From the NCBI GenBank assembly GCA_963804575.1, contig CAWDQY010000004.1, positions 332 to 64,331 of the forward strand: a stretch of 64,000 nucleotides of DNA, in the 5' to 3' direction. Under the pieces are notes generated by a model. The model was given only the letters and a program-made list of their open reading frames with translations, did no database searches and had not been told where the DNA came from. This document shows, piece after piece, positions 2,892 to 64,000 of the stretch. The stretch is from an uncultured Chloroflexia bacterium (lineage in GTDB: Bacteria; Chloroflexota; Limnocylindria; Limnocylindrales; CSP1-4). Position 1 is the first letter of the stretch. The number at the start of each line of letters is the position of its first letter. The position numbers and the translations under genes were made by a program.

Positions 2892-3061
2892 ATGGCACGC
2901 ACCCGACTGCGCCTCATCGCCACCGAGCGCGACCGTTGCGACCCCGCGCCACCACCGGCCATGAACCCCGTCGTCCTCGCGCTCGTGGCCGCACTCCGGG
3001 ACGTCGAACGTCGGCGGGGTCGAGGTACAGTCCCCTGCCCCTCGGACAGGAGGACCGCCGC

Positions 3062-3065
<4 letters not shown>
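2892..3065 (+). CDS. Possible 57-aa ORF translationally coupled to the recombinase start
   Basis: Hand translation gives MARTRLRLIATERDRCDPAPPPAMNPVVLALVAALRDVERRRGRGTVPCPSDRRTAA. Its TGA (3063-3065) overlaps the recombinase ATG (3062). It is below the ORF-track length cut-off. Confidence 0.25.
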
Positions 3066-4629
<1,564 letters not shown>

Positions 4630-21293: not shown

Positions 21294-22774
21294 TCGGGGA
21301 CTTCGGTACGTGGCACTGGACTACGGCGCCGAAAGCGGACGCACCATCGTCGGCCGCTTCGATGGCGACCAGCTCAGCATCGAGCCGGTGCATCGGTACG
21401 CCAACGTGCCTGTGCGCATGGGCGGCACGCTCTACTGGGACTTCGCCCGCCAGTTCAACGACATCCTCACCGGCCTGGGCAAGGCCGCCGAGGGTGGCCC
21501 GGTGCACTCGGTGTCGGTCGATACCTGGGGCGTGGACTACGGCTTCCTCGATGCGCGCGGCCGGCTCATCGGCAACCCCGTCCACTATCGCGATACGCGC
21601 CACGAGAGCATGCTCGAAGCCGCCTTCGAGACTCGTCCCGCGCGAGGAGATCTACCTCGCCACGGGGATCCAGTTCATGTCCATCAACACGCTCTTCCAG
21701 CTGCTGAGCGAGGTCCGCGCCAACGATCCCATCCTCGAGCAGGCGGACACGCTGCTGATGATGCCGGACATCTTCAACCACTTCCTCTGCGGCGCCGACG
21801 TGGCCGAGTACACCGAAGCCACCACCGGCCAGACGGTGGATCCCTGGACCCACGACTGGGCTCGGCCGCTCTTCGACCGCCTGGGCATCCCCACCCACTT
21901 CCTGCCGCAGATCGTGGAACCGGGCACGGTCCTGGGGCCGCTGCTCGACGAGGTCGCCGGTGCCAGCGGCTGTCGCGACACGCAGGTGGTCGCGGGGGCC
22001 TCGCATGACACCGCCTCGGCCGTGGCGGCCATCCCGCTGGCGGGGAGGTCGACCGCCTACATCTCGTCGGGCACCTGGTCACTGGTGGGACTGGAAGTCG
22101 ACGAGCCCGTCATCGACGAGGCCTCGCTGGCGGCCAACCTCACCAACGAGGGCGGCTATGCCGGCACCATCACGCTGCTGCGCAACGTCATGGGCCTGTG
22201 GCTGGTGCAGCAGAGCCGCAAGGCTCTCTGGCCCGCTGACGACGCCCCCTCGTACGCGGACATCTGCACGCTCGCAGAGGCAGGCACACCCGGCACCGCC
22301 TTCGTCGATCCCGACGATGCGCGCTTCCTGTGGCCCGGCGACATGCCCAGCCGCATCCGCGCCTTCTGCGAGGAAACCGGCCAGCCGGTACCGCTGGAGA
22401 TGCCCACGCTGTGGCGCGTCATCTTCGAGTCGCTGGCCCTGAAGTACGACTGGGTGGTCAACCGGCTGGGCGAGGTGACCGGTCGCGACATCGACCAGAT
22501 CCACATCGTCGGCGGTGGCTCGCAGAACGAGCTGCTGTGCCAGATCACGGCCGACATCAGCGGCCGCGAGGTGGTGGCCGGACCTGTCGAAGCCACGGCC
22601 ATCGGCAACATCGCCATCCAGGCCATCACCGCCGGCGAGCTGCGCGACCTGGCACAGGCACGCGAGCTCATCGCGCGCTCCTTCCCCATGCGGTCGTACC
22701 AGCCGTCGGGTGACTGGTCGGACGCGCGGGGACGGTTCGGCGAGCTGCTCGCGGCGCGTGCCGGCAAGCCCTAG
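21286..22774 (+). pseudogene. FGGY-family sugar kinase (rhamnulokinase-like), frameshift near 21635
   Basis: N-terminus YVALDYGAESGR...SVDTWGVDYGFLD in ORF 21286..22008. The remainder (SSGTWSLVGLE, IHIVGGGSQNELLCQ) is in ORF 21161..22774. Confidence 0.8.
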
Positions 22775-23744: not shown

Positions 23745-23956
23745 GGGTTGGCCGCGAGTGCTTGGGTTGGCCGCGTGTGCTCGGGTTGGCCGCGTGTGCT
23801 TGGGTTGGCCGCGTGTGCTGGGTCGCGGCGTGTGCTTGGGTCGGCGGTGTGGGCGCGGGTTGGCAGGCGTGTGCTTGGGTCAGCGGTGCGGTCGCGTGTG
23901 CTTGGGTCAGGCGGTGCGCTGGACCACCCGGTGGTGCTTGGGTCACCCCGTGTGCC
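23745..23956 (+). repeat. Tandem array A: about 10 units of about 19 bp (consensus GGGTTGGCCGCGTGTGCTT), degenerating rightwards
   Basis: The CCGCG core recurs at 23752, 23771, 23790 and 23809, an exact 19-bp spacing. Later units are progressively diverged. Confidence 0.85.
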
Positions 23957-24121: not shown

Positions 24122-24254
24122 CGGGCCTGCGGCCAGGCCTGGGCAGCCGCGGCGGTCACGGGCACCGCGGCCAGTCCCGGGCACCGCGGCCAGGCCCTGG
24201 CACCGCGGCCAGGTCCAGGGCACCGCGGCCAGTCTGGGCACCGCGGCCAGACCC
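24122..24254 (-). repeat. Tandem array B: about 7 units of 18-20 bp (GGGCACCGCGGCCAGnnnn), the inverted counterpart of array A
   Basis: CCGCGG at 24147, 24165, 24184, 24203, 24223 and 24241. The reverse complement of the unit (GGGACTGGCCGCGGTGCCC) aligns with the array A unit GGGTTGGCCGCGTGTGCTT. Confidence 0.85.
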
Positions 24255-24312
24255 CGGCAGCACGACCTGGACCTGGACACTCGCCTTTGCCGCTGACTGC
24301 CGTGCTCGCGAA

Positions 24313-29214: not shown

Positions 29215-29416
29215 ACGTTTCTCGGTCCTACTCCTTGGTCAACAGCGCGTCGAGGCCCGACCGACGTTCCGAGGACGGCGGCGAAGGCTCCCGTGACCGC
29301 TAACCATACCCAATCTCCGCGGCCGAGGGCATTCGTTTGCACAGCGCCGTCAGCGGCCTGTCGCTGGCCGGCGTGTCGTGGGTCGAGCGCCTGGCGCTGC
29401 GGACAGGTGTCCGCGT

Positions 29417-29474
29417 CCGCGGTCGGGCGCCTGTTCCGCGGTCAGGCGCCTGTTACCGCGCTCAGGTGCTCCGG
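29417..29474 (+). repeat. Three tandem 19-20-bp units starting with CCGCGG (array C), preceded by a 16-bp palindrome GCGGACAGGTGTCCGC (29398-29413)
   Basis: Units CCGCGGTCGGGCGCCTGTT, CCGCGGTCAGGCGCCTGTTA and CCGCGCTCAGGTGCTCCGG. They lie upstream of the ABC operon and overlap the stop of the MFS gene. Confidence 0.7.
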
Positions 29475-40499: not shown

Positions 40500-40574
40500 T
40501 GGTCGGGGTGGCGGGGATCGAACCCGCGACCTCATGCTCCCAAAGCATGTGCGCTACCGCTGCGCTACACCCCG
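40500..40574 (-). tRNA. tRNA-Pro (anticodon UGG), CCA encoded
   Basis: Manual fold: acceptor CGGGGTG/CACCCCG, anticodon stem CATGC/GCATG with loop TTTGGGA, T-arm GCGGG TTCGATC CCCGC, then A-CCA. Confidence 0.95.
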
Positions 40575-40709
40575 ACGAGTCCGTGCCTTGATAGGGTACA
40601 CAGCGAGACCGCAGGCGGTAGCGGAGGGTCTACAGCGCTCCCCGAGGATCAATTGGTGCCTGCACCTCGTCGGCAACTCACGAGCCCGGGCTGCACCGCC
40701 CTGCGGGTG

Positions 40710-41006
40710 CTATCTGCTGCGGAGCCAGCGCTCCAGATCAGCGCGATCCACGATTCCGAGCACCAGGACCACGCGGTCGCTGTCGATGACGTCATACATC
40801 ACACGGTGGTCGCCGACCCGCAGACGATGGAACGCATCGTGTGTCCCACGGATGGTCTTGACCGACTTGCCTGGTACGCGTCCGGGACGACCGACGTCGT
40901 GCGCGAGTCGAGCGAGGGTGTTCCGAAGGCGGTCCCGGTCTGCGTCATCGAGCTTCTGGAATTGCCGTGCGGCAGAACGGGAGAGCCGGACCTCGTAGGC
41001 GCTCAG
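40710..41006 (-). CDS. RelE/ParE-family toxin with no canonical start codon in frame (possible CTG at 41006)
   Basis: Hand translation: (L)SAYEVRLSRSAARQFQKLDDADRDRLRNTLARLAHDVGRPGRVPGKSVKTIRGTHDAFHRLRVGDHRVMYDVIDSDRVVLVLGIVDRADLERWLRSR. The RLRVGDHRVMY motif is typical of RelE/ParE. It overlaps the antitoxin stop by 4 nt and is absent from the ORF track. Confidence 0.6.
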   Translation of the reverse strand: MSAYEVRLSRSAARQFQKLDDADRDRLRNTLARLAHDVGRPGRVPGKSVKTIRGTHDAFHRLRVGDHRVMYDVIDSDRVVLVLGIVDRADLERWLRSR

Positions 41007-41239
41007 TCGAGATCCTCCAGACTGACCGTGCGCCCCTTGGCATAGTCGACGCGGGCAAGCCGACGCTGGCGGACATACTCATCGGCATTGGCCAACACGA
41101 GATCTTCGGCTTCGTCGACCGGCAGCAGGACCGCCGCGGGTCGGCCGCGCTTGGTGACGACATAGGCAGACCCACCCTCGACCTTGTCGATGACCGATGA
41201 GGCTGTCGCCTTCAGCTCCTTGATACCGATCTCCGCCAT
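41003..41239 (-). CDS. Phd/YefM-family antitoxin
   Basis: MAEIGIKELKATASSVIDKVEGGSAYVVTKRGRPAAVLLPVDE is classic Phd/YefM. The ORF track starts at 41251, but the ATG at 41239 has a better upstream AGGGA. Confidence 0.85.
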   Translation of the reverse strand: MAEIGIKELKATASSVIDKVEGGSAYVVTKRGRPAAVLLPVDEAEDLVLANADEYVRQRRLARVDYAKGRTVSLEDLD

Positions 41240-41254
41240 GCCATCCCTCATCTC

Positions 41255-41282
41255 GTCACTTGGTAGTCACGTAGGTGGTCAC
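41255..41282. promoter_or_regulatory. Three GTCAC direct repeats at 11-12-bp spacing upstream of the phd-relE module (candidate operator/promoter)
   Basis: GTCAC at 41255, 41266 and 41278, followed by a locally AT-richer stretch (TTTAGCACGTGTACTTACACATC). Confidence 0.45.
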
Positions 41283-41412
41283 TTTAGCACGTGTACTTAC
41301 ACATCGTGGGGATCGCGAGGTATGGCCTTGGCGTCGCCCGCCAGCAGGCCCAGACGCCAGTCATGCCTCTGAGTGGCTCAACCAGGCACACAAGGGCACG
41401 TGTCGCTTGCTG

Positions 41413-41694
41413 TCATCCCTGCTTTGCCCAGGACTCCTCAGCTTCGGACTCCATCCTCTTGAGGCGCGTGTAGTAATCCGGATACTCCTTGAGATGTGCG
41501 AGGGCAATCTTGCCCGTCACGATGGGATCACTTTCGCTCACATTGGTCTGCGGGTCGTGCGATCCGTGTTCCAGCTCGACATCGAGACCCTCCCGGAACT
41601 GATCCACCTCGAATGGGCTGGTGTCCCAGTCGATACCGATCTCAATCCCGATGCGTCGGGCCTCTTCGATGGTGAAGCGTTCGTTCGTCGTCAT
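41413..41694 (-). CDS. DUF5661-like small protein
   Basis: MTTNERFTIEEARRIGIEIGIDWD...DVELEHGSHDPQTNVSESDPIVTGKIALAHLKEYPDYYTRL. ATG at 41694 is preceded by GAGGAGG. The longer ORF-track start at 41829 is unlikely. Confidence 0.65.
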   Translation of the reverse strand: MTTNERFTIEEARRIGIEIGIDWDTSPFEVDQFREGLDVELEHGSHDPQTNVSESDPIVTGKIALAHLKEYPDYYTRLKRMESEAEESWAKQG

Positions 41695-41822
41695 GCGGTC
41701 CTCCTCAGCCGCCAGTGAGACAGGCGGCTCGCCAGAGAGCGTACTCCGGGTGGGACACCACCTCCGTCCGTGGAGCGCCTGTGCCGATCCAGATGGAGGT
41801 CGACGAGATGGCTTCAGACCGG

Positions 41823-41872
41823 CTCCCAAAGCATGTGCGCTACCGCTGCGCTACACCCCGACGAGTCCGTGC
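41823..41872 (-). repeat. 50-bp perfect duplicate of the 5' half of tRNA-Pro(UGG) plus 12 nt of its upstream flank (partner copy at 40537-40586)
   Basis: CTCCCAAAGCATGTGCGCTACCGCTGCGCTACACCCCGACGAGTCCGTGC is identical at both positions. Weaker similarity continues for about 18 more nt. The tRNA-derived part is 41823-41860, ending inside the anticodon loop. Confidence 0.9.
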
Positions 41873-41909
41873 GTGGATAGGTGCACAGCCCGCCTCGACG
41901 GCATCCGCG

Positions 41910-43691
41910 TCAGGACCCTACGGTGTACCGCAGGCGCGTCTGATCATCGGGACCGGTCAGCACCAGCAGCTGGCCATGCGCCTGGTTGTCGCGGAAGGCG
42001 AAGCGATCGACGTCGCCGAGCGCGGCGAGATACTCGGCCTCCGCGGTCATGGCCCCGCCCTCGCAGCTCCGACTCGTCGTCGCGAAGCCCGTGATGGTGA
42101 TGCGATTGCCAGTCGTCGTGTAGCTGCCCGAGTAGGTGTTGCAGCCCGAGAAACCGGCGACCCGGCCGTCATCGAACTCTGCGGTCACGGCGTCGGAGAT
42201 CTCCACCGGGGCGCCGCCACTGTCGCGGAAGTCGAGCACGACCCACGAGCTGCCGTCCAGGCGGGAGCCCGGGTCCGGCGTGGGGGTGGGCCTGGGCGTC
42301 GGCCTCGGTGTCGGTCTCGCCGTCGGCCGGGGAGTCGGCCGGGGAGTCGGTCTCGCCGTCGGCCGGGGAGTCGGCCGGGGAGTCGGTCTCGCCGTCGGTC
42401 TGGGCGTCGGGGTCGGGGTGGCCCTCGACCCGCGCGAGACGAAGATGTCGATGCGTGATCGCTCGTTGACTCGCTTGCCCGCCTCCGGGTCGCTGCGGAT
42501 GACACGGCCGTTCGCCACGTTGTCGTTGTAACGACGGTACCTGTCCCCGATGAGGAGTCCGCTGTCGTTCAACGACGCGATGGCGTCGGGCTCGGTCTGG
42601 CCACGCAGTTCGGGCACCCGCACTCGGACCGGAGTGGGCGCTGGCGTCGACGTGGGCGTTGGGGTCGGCGCGGGGCTTGCGGTAGCGGTCGGGCTCGGTT
42701 GCGGCGACGGATTGACGTCCGGATCGAGCGACTCGAGGATGAGTGTCGTCGAGCCCAGCGAGTCAGTGAGCAACAGCGCGGTATCGGTGAGCAGCACAGC
42801 CTGGGCTGAGGAGCCCAGGGCAGCCAGGAAGTCCTGCTCCTGTGCGGCAAGGGCGTCGGCGCAGGCTTCGAGCGTGGCGACGATGCGGCCTACGGCCAGG
42901 GCCTGGCCATCGACGACATAGTCGCCCGTATACGAGTTGCAGCCGGTCGAGCCCGTGACGCGGCCGTCGGCGTCGAACGTGACCGTCGGCGCTGCGTCGG
43001 TGATGGTCGGCACGGTGGCAAGGCTGGCATCCTGGTACGCGACGACCAGCCACGAGCCGAGGACTGGCGATGCCGGGAGCGGGTCGTAGACCAGGAGCGG
43101 ATCCCCGTTCACCCCGAAGAGGGTGAGGAGCTCGAGGCTGGGATCTTCCGGGTCGGGATCGACCGCCCACGAAGCCACCAGCGCGAGGCCGTCCAGGTAC
43201 GCTGCCTCCAGGGACCCGGCTGGCTCGGGGCAGGCTGCTCGAGTCGCCGCGATGGGCCCCAAGGTGACGGCATCGCCGTCGAGCTCGTACGTCGTGGTCC
43301 AGGCATTGCAGCCAGTCCAGCCGCCGGCCCGTCGGTCGTCTTCGATCGACAGCGTGGGCACGCCCAGCACCGGGGAGGTCGCGGCCACGGTGGCCTGCGT
43401 CGTTGCGGTGGGGTCGCCCGACGCCACGACCGACGTCGTCGCCTCCGGCGATGGGCTCGCTACAGCCGCTCCGACGTCGGTGACGTCCACGCGGACGCCG
43501 TCGGACACCAGTCTCAGCAGGCGCCAATCGAGCCGCTCTGCTTCGGTCTGTGTCGTGCTCTCCTGGGCAAGCGTGGACGCCACGCCAGCGACGCCGAGGG
43601 CGATGACCAGCAGCGCGGCGAGGAGTGCCGCGAGTGGACGACGATCGCGGGAAGGCTTGGATGGGTGCGACGGGCGGGGATGGAGTTGCAC
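41910..43691 (-). CDS. Secreted/anchored multidomain protein: META (HslJ-like) x2 - PASTA - Pro/Thr/Arg repeat linker - META
   Basis: N-terminal TM/signal segment. Three GCN-x-Y/W motifs (GWTGCNAWTTTY, GSTGCNSYTGDY, FSGCNTYSGSY). PASTA-like VRVPELRGQTEPDAIASLNDSGLLIGD...SRIDIFVSRG. (TPRPTPRPTARP)n is encoded by 36-bp DNA repeats at about 42290-42420. Confidence 0.75.
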   Translation of the reverse strand: MQLHPRPSHPSKPSRDRRPLAALLAALLVIALGVAGVASTLAQESTTQTEAERLDWRLLRLVSDGVRVDVTDVGAAVASPSPEATTSVVASGDPTATTQATVAATSPVLGVPTLSIEDDRRAGGWTGCNAWTTTYELDGDAVTLGPIAATRAACPEPAGSLEAAYLDGLALVASWAVDPDPEDPSLELLTLFGVNGDPLLVYDPLPASPVLGSWLVVAYQDASLATVPTITDAAPTVTFDADGRVTGSTGCNSYTGDYVVDGQALAVGRIVATLEACADALAAQEQDFLAALGSSAQAVLLTDTALLLTDSLGSTTLILESLDPDVNPSPQPSPTATASPAPTPTPTSTPAPTPVRVRVPELRGQTEPDAIASLNDSGLLIGDRYRRYNDNVANGRVIRSDPEAGKRVNERSRIDIFVSRGSRATPTPTPRPTARPTPRPTPRPTARPTPRPTPRPTARPTPRPTPRPTPTPDPGSRLDGSSWVVLDFRDSGGAPVEISDAVTAEFDDGRVAGFSGCNTYSGSYTTTGNRITITGFATTSRSCEGGAMTAEAEYLAALGDVDRFAFRDNQAHGQLLVLTGPDDQTRLRYTVGS

Positions 43692-56113: not shown

Positions 56114-57965
56114 TCAGGACGCCTCCAGTCCCTGCCGCAGCGCCTCCAGCTGCGCGGCCAGCTCGGGCGGTAGGCGATCGCCGAAGCGCGCGTAGTGATC
56201 CTCGAATTGCGACATCTCGGCCAGGATGGCAGGGCCGTCCACGCGGAGCAGCTCTTCGAGGTCGCCCTCGCGCATCTCCAAGCCGGTGGTGTCGAGATCC
56301 TCGGGTGCTGGCAGCCAGCCGATGGGCGTCTCGCGCGCATCGACCTCCCCGTCGCAGCGCCGGAAGATCCACTCGATGACTCGACTGTTCTCCCCGAAGC
56401 CCGGCCACATGAAATGGCCGTCACCGCCGCGACGGAACCAGTTGACGTAGTAGATGCGGGGCAGCTTGTCGGGCGTCGTGGCGCGACCGACGTCGAGCCA
56501 GTGCGCCCAGTAGTCGGCCATGTTGTACCCGCAGAATGGCAGCATGCCGAAGGGGTCGAAGCGCAGCTTGCCGATCTCGCCGAACGCGGCGGCGGTCATC
56601 TCCGAGCTCATGATCGAGCCCATGAAGACCCCGTGCTCCCAGTCGAAGCCTTCACGCACGAGCGGCACGATGTTGGCGCGACGGCCACCGAACATGATGG
56701 CGTCGAGGGGCACGCCGGCCGGGTCCTCCCACTCCGGCGCGATGGAGGGTGCCTGGCTGGCGGCGACCGTGAAACGGGCGTTGGCGTGGGCGGCAGGGTG
56801 ATCTCTCCGCCGGTGTCCAGTCCTTGGCCGTCCAGTCGATGGCGTGGTCGGGCGGAGCGTCCGTCATGCCTTCCCACCAGACGTCGCCATCGTCCGTGAG
56901 CGCCACGTTGGTGTAGATGGCGTTGGCATGCAGCGTACGCATGGCGTTCAGGTTGGTCTTGTCGCTGGTGCCCGGCGCGACACCGAAGAAGCCGGCTTCC
57001 GGGTTGATGGCGTAGAGGCGGCCGTCGTCGCCGAACCGCATCCAGCAGATGTCGTCGCCCAGCGTCTCGACCTTCCAGCCCGGCAGGGTCGGGACCAGCA
57101 TCGCCAGGTTGGTCTTGCCGCAGGCCGAGGGGAAGGCGCCACCGAGGTACTTGACCCGCCCGTCGGGCGCGGTGACCTTGATGATGAGCATGTGCTCGGC
57201 CAGCCAGCCCTCGTCGCGAGCGATGACCGAGGCGATGCGCAGGGCGTAGCACTTCTTGCCCAGCAGCGCGTTGCCGCCGTAGCCGGAGCCGTACGACCAG
57301 ATCTCGCGGTCCTCCGGGAAGTGGACGATGTACTTCTGCTCCGCGTCGCAGGGCCAGGGCACGTCGACGTCGCCGATCTCGAGCGGCGCGCCGACCGAGT
57401 GCAGGCAGGGCACGAAGTCGCCGGTGGCACGGATGGCCTCCAGTGCCGGTGTGCCCATGCGGGTCATGATGCGCATGTTGGCCACGACGTAGGGCGAGTC
57501 GGTGATCTGCACGCCGAGGCGGCTGATGGCAGAACCGATGGGGCCCATGGAGAACGGGATGACGTACATGGTGCGGCCGCTCATCGAGCCGCGGAACAGC
57601 TCGATGAGCGTCGCCCGCATCGAATCGGGGTCGTGCCAGTTGTTGGTGGGACCGGCGTCCATGGGATCGCGCGAGCAGATGAAGGTGCGATCCTCGACGC
57701 GAGCGACGTCACTGGGGTCGGAGCGCGCCAGGAAGCTGTCGGGCCGCTTGGTGGGATCGAGGGGCGTGAACGTGCCTGCCGCGACGAGTTCACGGCACAG
57801 GGCCTCGTACTCCGACTGTGAGCCGTCGCACCAATGGACCCGCTCGGGCCTGGTGAGCGCGGCCACGTCGGTGACCCAGCGATGGAGGTCCGCCTCCGTT
57901 CGGCCGGTGCTCGCGGAACCCGAGTGCAGGAGATCTGCGCCCAACCCGATCGTGCTCATCATCAC
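56114..57965 (-). pseudogene. pckG: Phosphoenolpyruvate carboxykinase (GTP), frameshift near 56800
   Basis: [19 protein letters not shown], kinase-1a FPSACGKTN and WMRF are in ORF 56652..57965. AAHANARFT (third frame) and [13 protein letters not shown]...YVNWF are in ORF 56114..56713. Confidence 0.9.
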
Positions 57966-58054: not shown

Positions 58055-58472
58055 TCATGTGGGTGCCGTTGTGCTCTCGCGACCGGCCGGGAGGTGCAGC
58101 AGCGGGGCAAGGACGACGGCAGCGAGCACCAGCACGTTCGCGATCGTTCCGGCAGAAGCGTCATCCCACCAGACGATGATGGCGAGCTGCGAGGTAGCGA
58201 CGCCGATGAGCGCGAGCGGACGCCACCATGGCCGCCCCATGGAGCAGCGCGACCCCCGCCGCGAGCAGAAGCGTCAGCGGCAGCAGCCAGAGGATGGCCA
58301 GGACCTCGGCCTCGATGCCCGCCACCGCGATGCTGGGCTCACCGGTGAGCTGTTCGAGATCCGCCAGGCCCCAGATATCGGCCGGTCCCATGAGATGGAT
58401 GAGGGCGTGCCCGATGAGCAGGATGCCGACCAGCCAGCGGACGATGTCGCCGCCGCGCGATGCCTGCGTCAT
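58055..58472 (-). pseudogene. Hypothetical small membrane protein B, frameshift near 58240; its ATG originally overlapped the stop of upstream gene A
   Basis: MTQASRGGDIVRWLVGILLIGHALIHL... continues after a GGGG run as GRPWWRPLALIGVATSQLAIIVWW... in ORF 58055..58240. Confidence 0.5.
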
Positions 58473-58473
58473 G

Positions 58474-58637
58474 CGACCTGGTCCGGCGTCGCGCGGCTGC
58501 GGCGAAAAAGTAGGAGAGAGGAAAGAGAACCGAAGGAGAAAAACAAGCATGAGAAGACAGGGAGGAGGCGAGGGAAGCAAAGGAAGAAGAAGTTGAGACG
58601 ACCTGTAGCAATGAAAAACGACCTGGTCCGGCGTCGC
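58474..58637. other. 126-nt purine-rich, low-GC insert (58493-58618) bracketed by perfect 19-bp direct repeats CGACCTGGTCCGGCGTCGC (58474-58492 and 58619-58637)
   Basis: Direct reading of the sequence. My hand count for 58504-58613 gives about 47% G+C and about 84% purine on the plus strand, against an about 70% G+C background. Confidence 0.9.
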
Positions 58638-59454
58638 CCGGTGCCCTGGCCTGACTGCCACGAACGTCAGACTCACGGCGATGAGCGTGATGATGCCGAC
58701 CACGATGACCGGCACCAGCACGACCTCCTCGCCGTCCACGGCCGAGTATGCGAAGACACCCAGCACCGCCAGGCCGATGAGCACCAGGAACACCAGCGCG
58801 GGCAGCGCCGTGGCAGCGGCGCGGGAGTCGTCGCGCAGCAGCCGCACGCCGCCGTAGGCCACGACCGGCAGGGCGAAGGCGAGATCGAGCGCCCAGATCG
58901 GGTTGGTGGGCAGGCCTGCACGGGCGAGCGTCTCGGTGGGGCCGTCAGCCGTGACGGCGGCGGCGATCTCGCTCGCCCACAGCAGGCCGAACACGATCGG
59001 CACCGCGATGAGGAAGATGCCGCTGCCGCGGCGAGGGAGGCGCGAGGCGATCGCCCCCAGCGCCGCTGGGTCGCCGGTGCGCCCGATGCCCAGCACCAGC
59101 GCCCACGCAGACAGGCCCAGGATGGCGAGGTAGAGCGGCGTGGCCGGATTGGGTGCCACGGTGAAGGCGAAGATGGCGTAGCTGTAGGCCACGTACCCGA
59201 GAGCGCCGATCACCGCCAACCGCGCCGGTACCGAGCCGGCGCGGGCGCGCCGAGCCGAGCGCGATCGCCAGCAGCGGCACCGCGAACAGCAGCGTGATCA
59301 CGTCGGTAGCCCGCGCCTCGCGCGTCCAGGACTGGGTGTCTCGATAGAGGTCGGGCGCCAGGAGGCCAGCCAGCGAGGCGACCGTGGCCAGGACGAGTGC
59401 ACCCGCGGCGAACGCGGATGGCAGGCCGACGCGCGTGTGCCACGGTTGGCTCAT
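58620..59454 (-). pseudogene. Hypothetical multi-TM membrane protein A, frameshift near 59225; its stop was lost because of the downstream insert
   Basis: The N-terminus MSQPWHTRVGLPSAFAAGALVLATVASLAG is in one frame, and the remainder (AVIGALGYVAYSYAIFAF...) is in ORF 58161..59219. That ORF now reads through the insert into gene B. Confidence 0.5.
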
Positions 59455-59679
59455 CTGTGCGATCCGGTAGTACGGCGCATGACATCTCCTGGGGGCGTTG
59501 CTGACGGCTCGATGGTCGTGGCCAGGCAGGTCACGGGGACAGGGCCGGACGGACCCGGATGACGGCACATGCGGCACCGGACGTACCCACCTGAGGCACC
59601 GTGGCATCGGGACGGTCGGCCCTACCCGGGTTCCGGGGAGCCGGTAGTGTCGGGACTTCGAGCGAGCACAGGAGGCCCC

Positions 59680-60700
59680 ATGACGCTGACCGCGCGCGAA
59701 CGCGTGCTGCGAACGCTCCGGCACGAGCCGGTCGACCGACTGCCGACGCAGGTCAACTACACGACCACGATGGGGCAGCGCATGTCCGAGCACTTCGGCG
59801 TGAGCGCAGAGGTACTGCCGGCGCGACTGGGCAACCACCTGGTGCGCGTGGGCCTCACGTATGAACCACGCCTGAGCGCCGACGGCAAGGCTCGCTACGA
59901 CTGGTGGGGGGCGGGGCACGACACGCAGGAGGAGGGTTACTACATCCGCGAGGCACCACTGTCGGAACGGCGTGATCTCGATGCCTTCGACTGGCCCGAT
60001 CCACGCGCGCCGGGCCTGCTGCTGGACGCCGAGCGCGTGCGAGCCGCCACCGGCGACGAAGCCTTCGTCATCCCCGATCTGGGTTGGGCGCTCTTCGAGC
60101 GAGCCTGGTCGCTGCGCGGCTTCGAGAACACGCTCCTGGAGCTCGCCGCCGACCCCGCCTACCTGGGTGAGCTGATGGATCGCATCGTGGATATCCGGCT
60201 CGTGCTCATCGAGCGCTACATCGACCTCGGCGTCGATGGCGGCTACTTCGGCGATGACTACGGCGCCCAGGCGGGCCTGCTGTTCTCGCCGGCCACCTGG
60301 CGCAGCCTCATCAAGCCACGCCTGGCGCGCTTGTTCGGACCCTTCGTCGAGCGGGGCCTGCCGGTGCTGATGCATTCGGATGGCAAGATCGACGACATCG
60401 TCCCCGACCTGCTCGAGATCGGCCTCACGGCGCTCAATCCTGTCCAGCCGGAGGTCCTCGACCACGCCTGGCTGGGGGCCACGTTCGGCGGCCGGCTGGC
60501 CTTCTATGGCGGCATCTCCACCCAGACCGTGCTGCCGCGCGGGACGCCGGCCGAGGTGCGCGAAGCCGCGGCTGCCTGCCGCCGGGCCCTCGCGCCCGGG
60601 GGCACCGGCCTGCTACTGGCGCCATCGCATCGACTGATGACGGACATCCCGATGGACGAACGTGGAGGCCCTGCTGGAGGCCTTCGCCGAGGCAGTGCTG
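59680..60700 (+). pseudogene. Uroporphyrinogen decarboxylase (URO-D)-family protein (MtaA/CmuA-like), frameshift near 60656; the 3' end is uncertain
   Basis: ATG at 59680 follows AGGAGG. RERVLRTLRHEPVDRLP, GYFGDDYGAQ, MHSDGKI and LNPVQPE are typical URO-D family segments. The C-terminus NVEALLEAFAEAV is in another frame. Confidence 0.7.
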
Positions 60701-60704
60701 AGTC

Positions 60705-61916
60705 GTGGACATGCGCCGCCGCGAGGCCATCGAGCTGGAGTTCGTGAAGCTGTACGGCGGGCCTCCGACCGACTGGCTGCGTGCACCTGGTCGGGTGGAC
60801 CTGATGGGCAGCCACACCGACTACAACGATGGGCACGTGCTGACGATGACGGTCGACCGTGACACCTGGATCGCGGTGCGTCGTCGAGACGATCGCCGCG
60901 TGGCGATCGCCTCGCTGAACCTGCCCGGCACGGCCGACTTCAGCCTCGCTGCCATCGAACGCGACCCGGATGTGCCCTGGACCGATTACGTCCGCGGCGC
61001 GGCGCGGGTGCTGCAAGAGGACGGCACCGACCTCGCCGGCTTCGACGCGTTGCTGCACAGCAGCGTGCCGTTCGGCAGCGGCCTCTCATCGTCGGCCGCG
61101 ATCGAGATCGCCACGTTGCTCGCCTTCGATGCCGTCGGCGGCAGCCACCACGAGCCGCTGGAGCTGGCCATCCTCGGACAGCGCGTGGAGAACGAGTTCG
61201 TGGGTGTCAGCTGCGGCATCCTCGACCAGTACACCTCGGTGCTGGGGACCGCCGGCCATGCCCTGCTGCTCGACTGCCGGGCGCTGCGCAGCCGCCCCGT
61301 GGCCATCGCCGCCGACCTGGCGGTCGTCATCTGCGACACGCGCGCCCCGCGGCAGCTGGCCGGGTCCGAGTACGACGAGCGGCGGGCCCAGTGCGAGGCC
61401 GGCGCGGCCCACATCGCGGCATCGACCGCGGAGGCGGCGGCGACCAAGACCGCGGGGACGCCGGCCATCACGGCCCTGCGTGACGTCAGCCTGGAGCTGT
61501 TCGAGGCACACGAGGCGGAGCTGCCGGCGGTGGTGGCCCGGCGCTGCCGCTTCATCCTCGAGGAGGACCGCCGCGCGCTCGACCTGGCGGAGGTGCTCCC
61601 GAGCGGCGACCGGGCGGCCCTGGCACGGCTGTTCGAGGCCTCCTTCAGGGGTGCCATCGAGCTGTTCGAGATCGGGGCGCCTTCGATGCTCGCCATGCAC
61701 CAGGCGATGGACGATGCACCAGGGCTGGTGGCACGGCGACAGGCGGGCGCCGGCTTCGGCGGCTGCCTGGTGGCACTGGTGGAGCGTGAGGCCGTCGAAG
61801 CATTCAGCGCGTACGTGGGACGCGCCTATGCCAGCGCGACTGGGATCGAGCCCAGCGTCTTCGCGGTGGAGGCCGCAGCCGGTGCCGGTCCGCTGACCAG
61901 CCCTCGGGGTCGCTGA
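60705..61916 (+). CDS. galK: Galactokinase (GHMP kinase family)
   Basis: The galactokinase signature GRVDLMGSHTDYNDG, the GHMP ATP motif PFGSGLSSSAA, then ENEFVGVSCGILDQ and GAGFGGC. Confidence 0.88.
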   Translation: MDMRRREAIELEFVKLYGGPPTDWLRAPGRVDLMGSHTDYNDGHVLTMTVDRDTWIAVRRRDDRRVAIASLNLPGTADFSLAAIERDPDVPWTDYVRGAARVLQEDGTDLAGFDALLHSSVPFGSGLSSSAAIEIATLLAFDAVGGSHHEPLELAILGQRVENEFVGVSCGILDQYTSVLGTAGHALLLDCRALRSRPVAIAADLAVVICDTRAPRQLAGSEYDERRAQCEAGAAHIAASTAEAAATKTAGTPAITALRDVSLELFEAHEAELPAVVARRCRFILEEDRRALDLAEVLPSGDRAALARLFEASFRGAIELFEIGAPSMLAMHQAMDDAPGLVARRQAGAGFGGCLVALVEREAVEAFSAYVGRAYASATGIEPSVFAVEAAAGAGPLTSPRGR

Positions 61917-63540: not shown

Positions 63541-63722
63541 GGCGGGCATCGCGGCGTCTGTTCGGCAGGCGGGGGCACGGTCGAGCAGTCGGGTCGGGTA
63601 GGGTCGGCGGCTGGGCGGCATCGGCGGTGCTGTGCCCCATGCGCTCATCGCCGCGACCGCCATCGAGCAAGCTGCACGCTCGTGACCCGAAACCGCGCCG
63701 ACTTCGCTGGCATCAAACAGCT

Positions 63723-63805
63723 CCGCGGCGCACGCCGGCGTCTCGTCCGCGGCGCCGGCGTGTCGTCCGCGGCATCGGCGGTGTTCCGCGGCGCCGGCGT
63801 GTCGT
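63723..63805 (+). repeat. Four tandem 19-24-bp units beginning with CCGCGG (array D)
   Basis: CCGCGG at 63723, 63747, 63767 and 63786. Units 2 and 4 are identical (CCGCGGCGCCGGCGTGTCGT). Confidence 0.8.
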
Positions 63806-64000
63806 CCCGCTTGTGGACTATCGTCGCTCCCGGCGACCGTAGTCCCACTCGTAGTCACCCTGGACGTCCGATCGCTGGCTCGAGCGGCCTTGACGGTCCG
63901 CGGTCTCACGCTCAGTGGCCGGGATCTCACGCACGGTGGAGCATGCCAAGAGGACGAGAGTCGCTACAGGTCCGCCAACGCAGGAGCGATGTGAGTCTAG

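Follow-up and report, generated by a model that had tools for sequence, protein, structure and literature searches.

A 145-nt insertion with a perfect 19-bp flanking duplication at a Limnocylindrales gene junction: probably an error of a noisy assembly

At the junction of two minus-strand membrane-protein genes, here called A and B, the contig carries 145 nt that its relatives lack, and as a genuine biological feature this insertion most likely does not stand. The reading that we place first, with a probability of about 0.55, is that the 145 extra bases stem from a structural "expansion" error which a noisy consensus has kept and would be absent from the genome of the organism. The source is likely a low-coverage long-read metagenome assembly, and the poor consensus quality behind the small indels of this contig may also have made the large insertion. 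We prefer this reading because the contig carries many frame-breaking indels in conserved genes, because the insert falls where these lesions are most crowded, because it is unique to one contig and because its composition is non-coding and of low complexity. An assembly chimera had been one of several candidates in an earlier note on this DNA, and an artefact of assembly or sequencing is now the leading explanation. It is the frame-breaking indels across the contig, which the earlier note did not contain, that change the weighing of the insert. The window, as used below, is the whole stretch of 64 kb that was analysed.

The added length of 145 nt is made up of a 126-nt string and a second copy of the 19-mer, and its parts, with coordinates in plus-strand order, are as follows:

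58474 to 58492: first copy of the direct repeat, CGACCTGGTCCGGCGTCGC; on the minus strand it is the native C-terminus of gene A (..ATPDQVA) and it adjoins the ATGA junction
58493 to 58618: the 126-nt orphan insert, non-coding in the frame model and stop-free in all minus-strand frames
58493 to 58505: G+C-rich head of the insert, GCGGCTGCGGCGA
58506 to 58597: polypurine core, without periodicity, predicted structure or any match
58598 to 58605: ACGACCTG, a third, abortive copy of the repeat start
58619 to 58637: second copy of the direct repeat, through which the minus-strand reading of gene A continues into the insert

The flanking direct repeats are perfect over 19 bp, as was claimed at first sight. 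The two copies are exact, the identity ends sharply with no further matching base beyond either of them, and extending the repeat past 19 nt was not significant. The exact 19-mer occurs in the 64-kb window at 58474-58492 and 58619-58637 only, and it is thus not a common repeat there; a perfect pair of 19-mers at a spacing of 145 nt is far beyond chance. No microhomology was found at the exact junctions. The insert is also of low G+C content and polypurine, at 49.2% G+C and 81.7% purine on the plus strand (an earlier hand count had given 47% and 84%) with 44% A, compared to 69.3% G+C and 50.8% purine in the window. It is the most purine-rich 126-mer of the window, 6.7 SD over the mean of 0.508, the G+C minimum of the window falls inside it, and only 0.75% of the window has a 3-mer entropy as low. 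The plus strand of the insert terminates in GAAAAA (58613-58618) directly before the second repeat copy, with a run of five A's only.

Two weak local signals link the ends of the insert to sequence nearby. In the head, 58496-58505 is complementary at 9 of 10 positions to 58447-58456, which lies 37-46 nt upstream (empirical p ~0.02), and this is possibly a fold-back templated patch. In the tail, a third partial copy of the repeat core had been placed at 58599-58606; it is indeed present, but only the 7 nt CGACCTG match the repeat, and at the second copy the preceding A brings the match to 8 nt. When the insert was shuffled, a 7-mer in common with the repeat appeared in 0.9% of trials (p ~0.01). 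That the insert as a whole is garbled flanking DNA found no support, and there was no significant similarity to the flanks.

The genes on either side are conserved in five related contigs of 81-93% nucleotide identity, which have in common the order galK, URO-D, (a 70-aa ORF), A, B, PEPCK and a response regulator; the best protein matches are labelled Candidatus Limnocylindrales (Chloroflexota). In the window these genes, and the ORF that is formally produced from A and B, are:

56114 to 57965, minus strand: PEPCK (GTP; phosphoenolpyruvate carboxykinase), with a window-specific +1 at about 56806-56809
58055 to 58472, minus strand: gene B, a conserved small membrane protein, with a +1 at about 58242
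58161 to 59219, minus strand: the formal fused ORF of 352 aa, consisting of A without its N-terminus, the linker and B without its C-terminus
58469 to 59454, minus strand: gene A, a conserved multi-pass membrane protein, interrupted at about 59253-59256 by a +4 and, close to the 3' end, by the 145-nt insertion
59674 to 60747, plus strand: URO-D (uroporphyrinogen decarboxylase), with a window-specific +1 at about 60657

In a multiple alignment the insert was absent from all five related contigs, each of which has a single copy of the site, and the gap in the alignment with the closest relative is exactly 145 nt. The ATGA in which the TGA of A overlaps the ATG of B is also kept in 5/5. Since the relatives keep the gene order, a single site copy without insert, and the overlap, the comparison indicates that the segment is a derived insertion relative to the ancestral state, specific to the lineage or to the contig, in a translationally coupled gene pair. 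Deleting 145 nt from the window does restore the arrangement that the earlier note had described, namely gene A ending in ...ATPDQVA-TGA with this TGA overlapping the ATG of MTQASRGG (ATGA at plus-strand 58469-58472), and the A/B junctions of the relatives, none of which has the insert or the linker, bear out its proposal of an insertion event. Gene A of the relatives encodes 278-307 aa where complete and is 5'-truncated to 227 aa on one short contig (L005), and gene B encodes 136-139 aa; no family for A or B was found in Pfam or NCBIfam. A protein-seeded metagenome scan for closer relatives returned only five distant loci. The substitution density near the insert was uninformative, the C-terminus of A and the N-terminus of B being variable among the relatives as well.

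No copy, donor or known element was found for the insert in the collections searched. A short-word BLAST within the 64-kb window gave only chance 9-12-mers. Exact-match queries, which were 22-24-mers taken from three parts of the insert, had no match in 185,579 species-representative genomes, 241 million metagenome records and 2.9 million viral contigs. BLAST of the insert against plasmid and phage collections, the latter of which should contain lambda and phiX controls, gave chance-level matches only, and against E. coli genomes it gave no match. The BLASTN search for further copies or a donor that had been proposed earlier was thus negative in the window and in the plasmid, phage and E. coli collections, and so was the proposed Rfam scan, in which no family was detected in the insert even at a permissive threshold. 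DNA folding of either insert strand and of the native junction was no better than that of shuffles. There was no inverted repeat linking the insert ends (58493-58618), and inverted matches were seen only between the head and native upstream sequence. Local alignment with a set of PacBio, ONT, Illumina, 454 and Ion adapter sequences was no better than that of shuffled inserts.

The evidence that weighs most comes from the rest of the contig. The codon-position G+C frame model revealed about 15 frame changes in the 64 kb that have neither a stop nor a start at the junction, at the following sites:

3239, 3512, 3688, 7213, 15090, 17201, 18144, 19960
21631, 46754, 49270, 56806, 58242, 59256, 60657

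The genes that are split include PEPCK, an alpha-amylase-family enzyme, a rhamnulokinase-like FGGY kinase, an aldolase/SDR fusion and an MFS transporter, and many of the proteins annotated on the contig will be truncated. When the pieces are joined, one Pfam domain spans the junction at 21631 (FGGY_N), 17201 (Aldolase_II), 18144 (adh_short) and 7213 (MFS_1). The lesions are clustered at 15-22 kb, 46-50 kb and 56-61 kb, with none in the 25 kb between 21.6 and 46.7 kb, and the insert falls in the densest cluster, which has five lesions in 3.9 kb. Four further frame-breaking insertions, all window-specific, lie within 3.9 kb around the insert (PEPCK +1, B +1, A +4 and URO-D +1). PEPCK is intact at 615 aa in the relatives, the +4 in A (~59256) and the +1 in B (~58242) are absent from 3/3 relatives compared, and the +1 in URO-D shifts its C-terminus and makes the ORF overlap galK. 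Deleting the window-specific insertions makes PEPCK, A and B full length, and the dN/dS is 0.13-0.46 upstream and downstream of each lesion; in PEPCK it is 0.13 upstream and 0.18 downstream. Genes with such values on both sides of a lesion are under purifying selection, and the lesions must therefore be of extremely recent date, if they are real at all. That a free-living bacterium underwent some 15 independent and simultaneous inactivations within 64 kb in very recent time is not credible, whereas consensus error is.

The kind of lesion points in the same direction. In nature, frameshift mutations are found mainly in runs and short repeats, and the bias of bacterial genomes is toward deletion. 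At the lesions of this contig there was no enrichment of homopolymers (5/15 sites versus a background of 36%) and likewise none of tandem duplications, and net +1 events outnumber net -1 events by about 11 to 5. This excess of insertions away from homopolymers is the opposite of natural slippage and deletion bias. Long-read assemblies have insertion-rich raw errors, and frameshifts persist in them after polishing when coverage is low (10.1101/2021.08.23.457338), and the spectrum of lesions seen here matches such residual errors. At 60655-60658 in URO-D the window has GT, against a G in one relative and a T in another. A consensus in which two alleles of a polymorphic site had been merged into an insertion would give this picture, a hint that the assembled population was heterogeneous in strains.

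A large extra segment in a contig of this kind has a defined counterpart, as expansions of at least 50 bp are a recognised class of long-read assembly error (Inspector, PMC8590762). The context of small-scale consensus errors that goes with an expansion error is present here, with five window-specific frame-breaking insertions and about 15 lesions. How the expansion arose is a matter of speculation. A read, or a join from read to read, might have passed through the 19-mer, after which junk base calls might have followed with one abortive restart (CGACCTG); the 19-mer would then have been read again and continued into the native sequence, and polishing would have failed to remove the extra sequence. 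In behaviour, the expansion and indel errors of long reads (Inspector; proovframe) are the closest likeness to what is seen here, namely extra sequence that is absent from relatives together with random 1-nt, insertion-biased, patchy indels that split genes. Unlike the expansions usually described, which are in repeats, this one is a non-repetitive purine-rich string with a perfect 19-nt duplication, and it is known from the contig sequence alone.

The perfect 19-nt duplication is not a textbook signature of an artefact, and it is the chief weakness of reading the insert as one. Taken by itself, it resembles the target duplications made in transposition or target-primed reverse transcription. 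We are aware of no artefact on record whose specific product is junk with a perfect flanking duplication of 19 nt. Both copies of the repeat are perfect, and elsewhere the contig has about one error per 4 kb; a consensus of that quality would normally vote out a junk insertion from a single read unless local coverage was very low. The insert is also without significant similarity to the adapter sequences compared. The weak templated snippets at its ends fit a stuttering read or join and template switching in vivo equally, and a noisy contig can still hold one real insertion.

The most serious alternative is that the insertion is real, a very recent and one-off event; we consider this possible though doubtful. 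A staggered break at the A/B junction, with nicks 19 nt apart, would have been filled in and joined to 126 bp of filler, through end joining or a series of template switches. The filler would be captured foreign DNA or a largely untemplated product of a polymerase, and it would be functionless and inactivate or decouple A and B. Repair of a staggered break in vivo explains the 19-nt duplication, perfect and sharp-edged, more naturally than an artefact does, and the insertion is derived, since it is absent from all relatives. The 9/10 complementarity of the insert head and the abortive 7-8-nt copy in the tail also suit this alternative, as templated insertions at repaired breaks (alternative end joining) typically carry such short snippets, and the absence of a donor fits untemplated synthesis or a donor that has not been sampled. 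In being a one-off orphan with a duplication that fill-in could explain and with short end snippets of weak likeness to nearby sequence, the insert is like the filler left by break repair (Ku/LigD; alternative end joining). It differs from bacterial end joining in that the additions of the latter are normally of a few nucleotides, and we know of no bacterial process that is documented to give 19-bp duplications together with about 100 nt of purine-rich filler. The filler insertion must moreover coincide with four independent inactivating insertions within 3.9 kb in genes under purifying selection, or else be the sole real lesion while its four neighbours are errors, and it is represented on a single contig only. 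A more specific form of this alternative, to which we give little credence, is an undescribed outcome of repair in which a 19-nt stagger is filled and some 100 nt of DNA, purine-biased and for the most part untemplated, closes the gap between short snippets copied from the vicinity. The polymerase in such a repair would be a template-independent or template-switching one at work on the chromosome, for example a LigD/PrimPol-type or an Abi-type enzyme.

It is very unlikely that the insert is a new kind of miniature non-autonomous mobile element which makes a 19-bp target-site duplication. What speaks for it is only that a direct repeat flanks a discrete cargo of foreign composition; in the repeat, the small size and the lack of an ORF the insert is like MITEs and other small non-autonomous insertion elements. 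Unlike these it has no terminal inverted repeats, and its 19-bp duplication is longer than the target duplications of known IS and MITE families, which are 2-14 bp. A predicted structure is lacking too, no second copy was found in the 64 kb or in the collections searched, and nothing above chance was obtained with plasmids, phages and E. coli. The two features noticed in the window that relate to recombinases or integration (the frameshifted serine-recombinase-like ORF at 3034-4092 and the islet at tRNA-Pro, 40.5 kb) are 17-55 kb away. The suggestion of a novel miniature insertion element, which had headed the earlier list of candidates, has thus lost its ground.

Insertion of a reverse-transcribed RNA fragment by target-primed reverse transcription is just as improbable. 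Target-primed reverse transcription of the LINE/SINE kind produces variable target duplications of 7-20 bp and an A-rich 3' end, and the 19-bp duplication is within that range and the GAAAAA is immediately 5' of the second repeat copy on the plus strand. In the length of the duplication and the short non-coding cargo the insert does resemble LINEs, SINEs and processed pseudogenes, and perhaps also in the A's that precede the downstream duplicate. These, however, are products of a eukaryotic mechanism, and here the A-run amounts to five A's in a segment that is 44% A, the insert is single copy, no reverse transcriptase came to notice in an unsystematic look at the window, Rfam gave no donor family and the donor sequence was not found in the collections searched. 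To our knowledge the mechanism does not occur in bacteria beyond group II introns, which leave no such duplications.

That the insert supplies a new linker or transmembrane segment which joins A and B into a functional fusion is a reading that codon statistics and the further frameshifts have effectively refuted, and we assign it next to no probability. The earlier note had described an in-frame fusion, and the uninterrupted ORF at 58161-59219 with its hydrophobic Leu/Pro/Phe-rich linker does exist, the linker string being as quoted there although it counts 49 residues and not 48. The frame is not meaningful, however. The pyrimidine-rich strand of the insert has no stops in any of the three frames, and for this reason an in-frame reading from A to B is a 1-in-3 outcome. 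The G+C at third codon positions (GC3) is 0.46 in the linker versus 0.92 in gene A, and the frame model scores 58459-58617 as non-coding. Because A and B are frameshifted elsewhere in the contig, the annotated product, which is a 350-aa singleton among about 15 billion proteins in a public collection, lacks the N-terminus of A and the C-terminus of B. No fused orthologue was found: the homologues of A are unfused in 28/28 cases (227-307 aa), and the relatives keep A and B as separate genes with the ATGA overlap. A linker without a coding signature, between genes that are broken elsewhere, is no candidate for the additional transmembrane helix that had been suggested; a fusion protein with such a helix is not credible on this sequence, and the apparent A-B fusion is a by-product of annotation.

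A small ORF on the plus strand of the insert had also been pointed out. AAGGAG (58533-58538) and a 15-codon ORF of AGA/GGA codons starting with ATG at 58549 are both present, with a spacer of 10 nt and not 9. From the composition of the insert alone 0.55 occurrences of AAGGAG are expected, and we do not regard the motif and the ORF as a meaningful signal; both can be put down to chance in a string of 82% purine.

If the insert is an artefact, as is most likely, the 350-aa "fusion" membrane protein annotated on this contig is fictitious, and about a dozen genes are annotated there in pieces. The practical lesson is that an oddity seen on one contig of a noisy metagenome-assembled genome calls for comparison with relatives and with the reads ahead of any interpretation. 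Were the insert real, it would be a rare natural case of a long filler-DNA insertion in a bacterium with an unusually long target duplication, of relevance to research on break repair, and it would still be a single event that is probably non-functional.

Some other features of the window were observed. The 3' part of a tRNA-Pro(tgg) gene (40500-40574, minus strand) is repeated 1.29 kb away with 97% identity (40536-40595 versus 41822-41881), and the repeats bracket DNA of lower G+C (window 40500-41881) with small minus-strand ORFs that resemble toxin-antitoxin pairs. By its sequence, 40500-41881 has the look of a small islet that integrated at a tRNA gene and is flanked by att-like direct repeats. 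A serine-recombinase-like ORF at 3034-4092, beside tRNA-Pro(cgg) (4553-4629), is in at least four pieces, with frame changes and an in-frame stop; it may be either a decayed integrase of a mobile element or another victim of consensus error. Within the minus-strand coding region 41958-43625, a 12/36-nt tandem repeat at 42276-42410 encodes a low-complexity stretch rich in Asp, Gly, Glu, Pro, Thr and Ser. Finally, two arrays of about seven 19-nt tandem repeats each, which are roughly reverse complements of each other (GGGTTGGCCGCGTGTGCTT at 23745-23880 and GCGGCCAGTCCCGGGCACC at 24129-24259), lie about 250 nt apart within a non-coding gap of 590 nt, and shorter arrays of period 19 and 20 occur at 29416-29466 and 63722-63807. 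That the tandem arrays and the repeat flanking the insert have the length of 19 in common is probably a coincidence.
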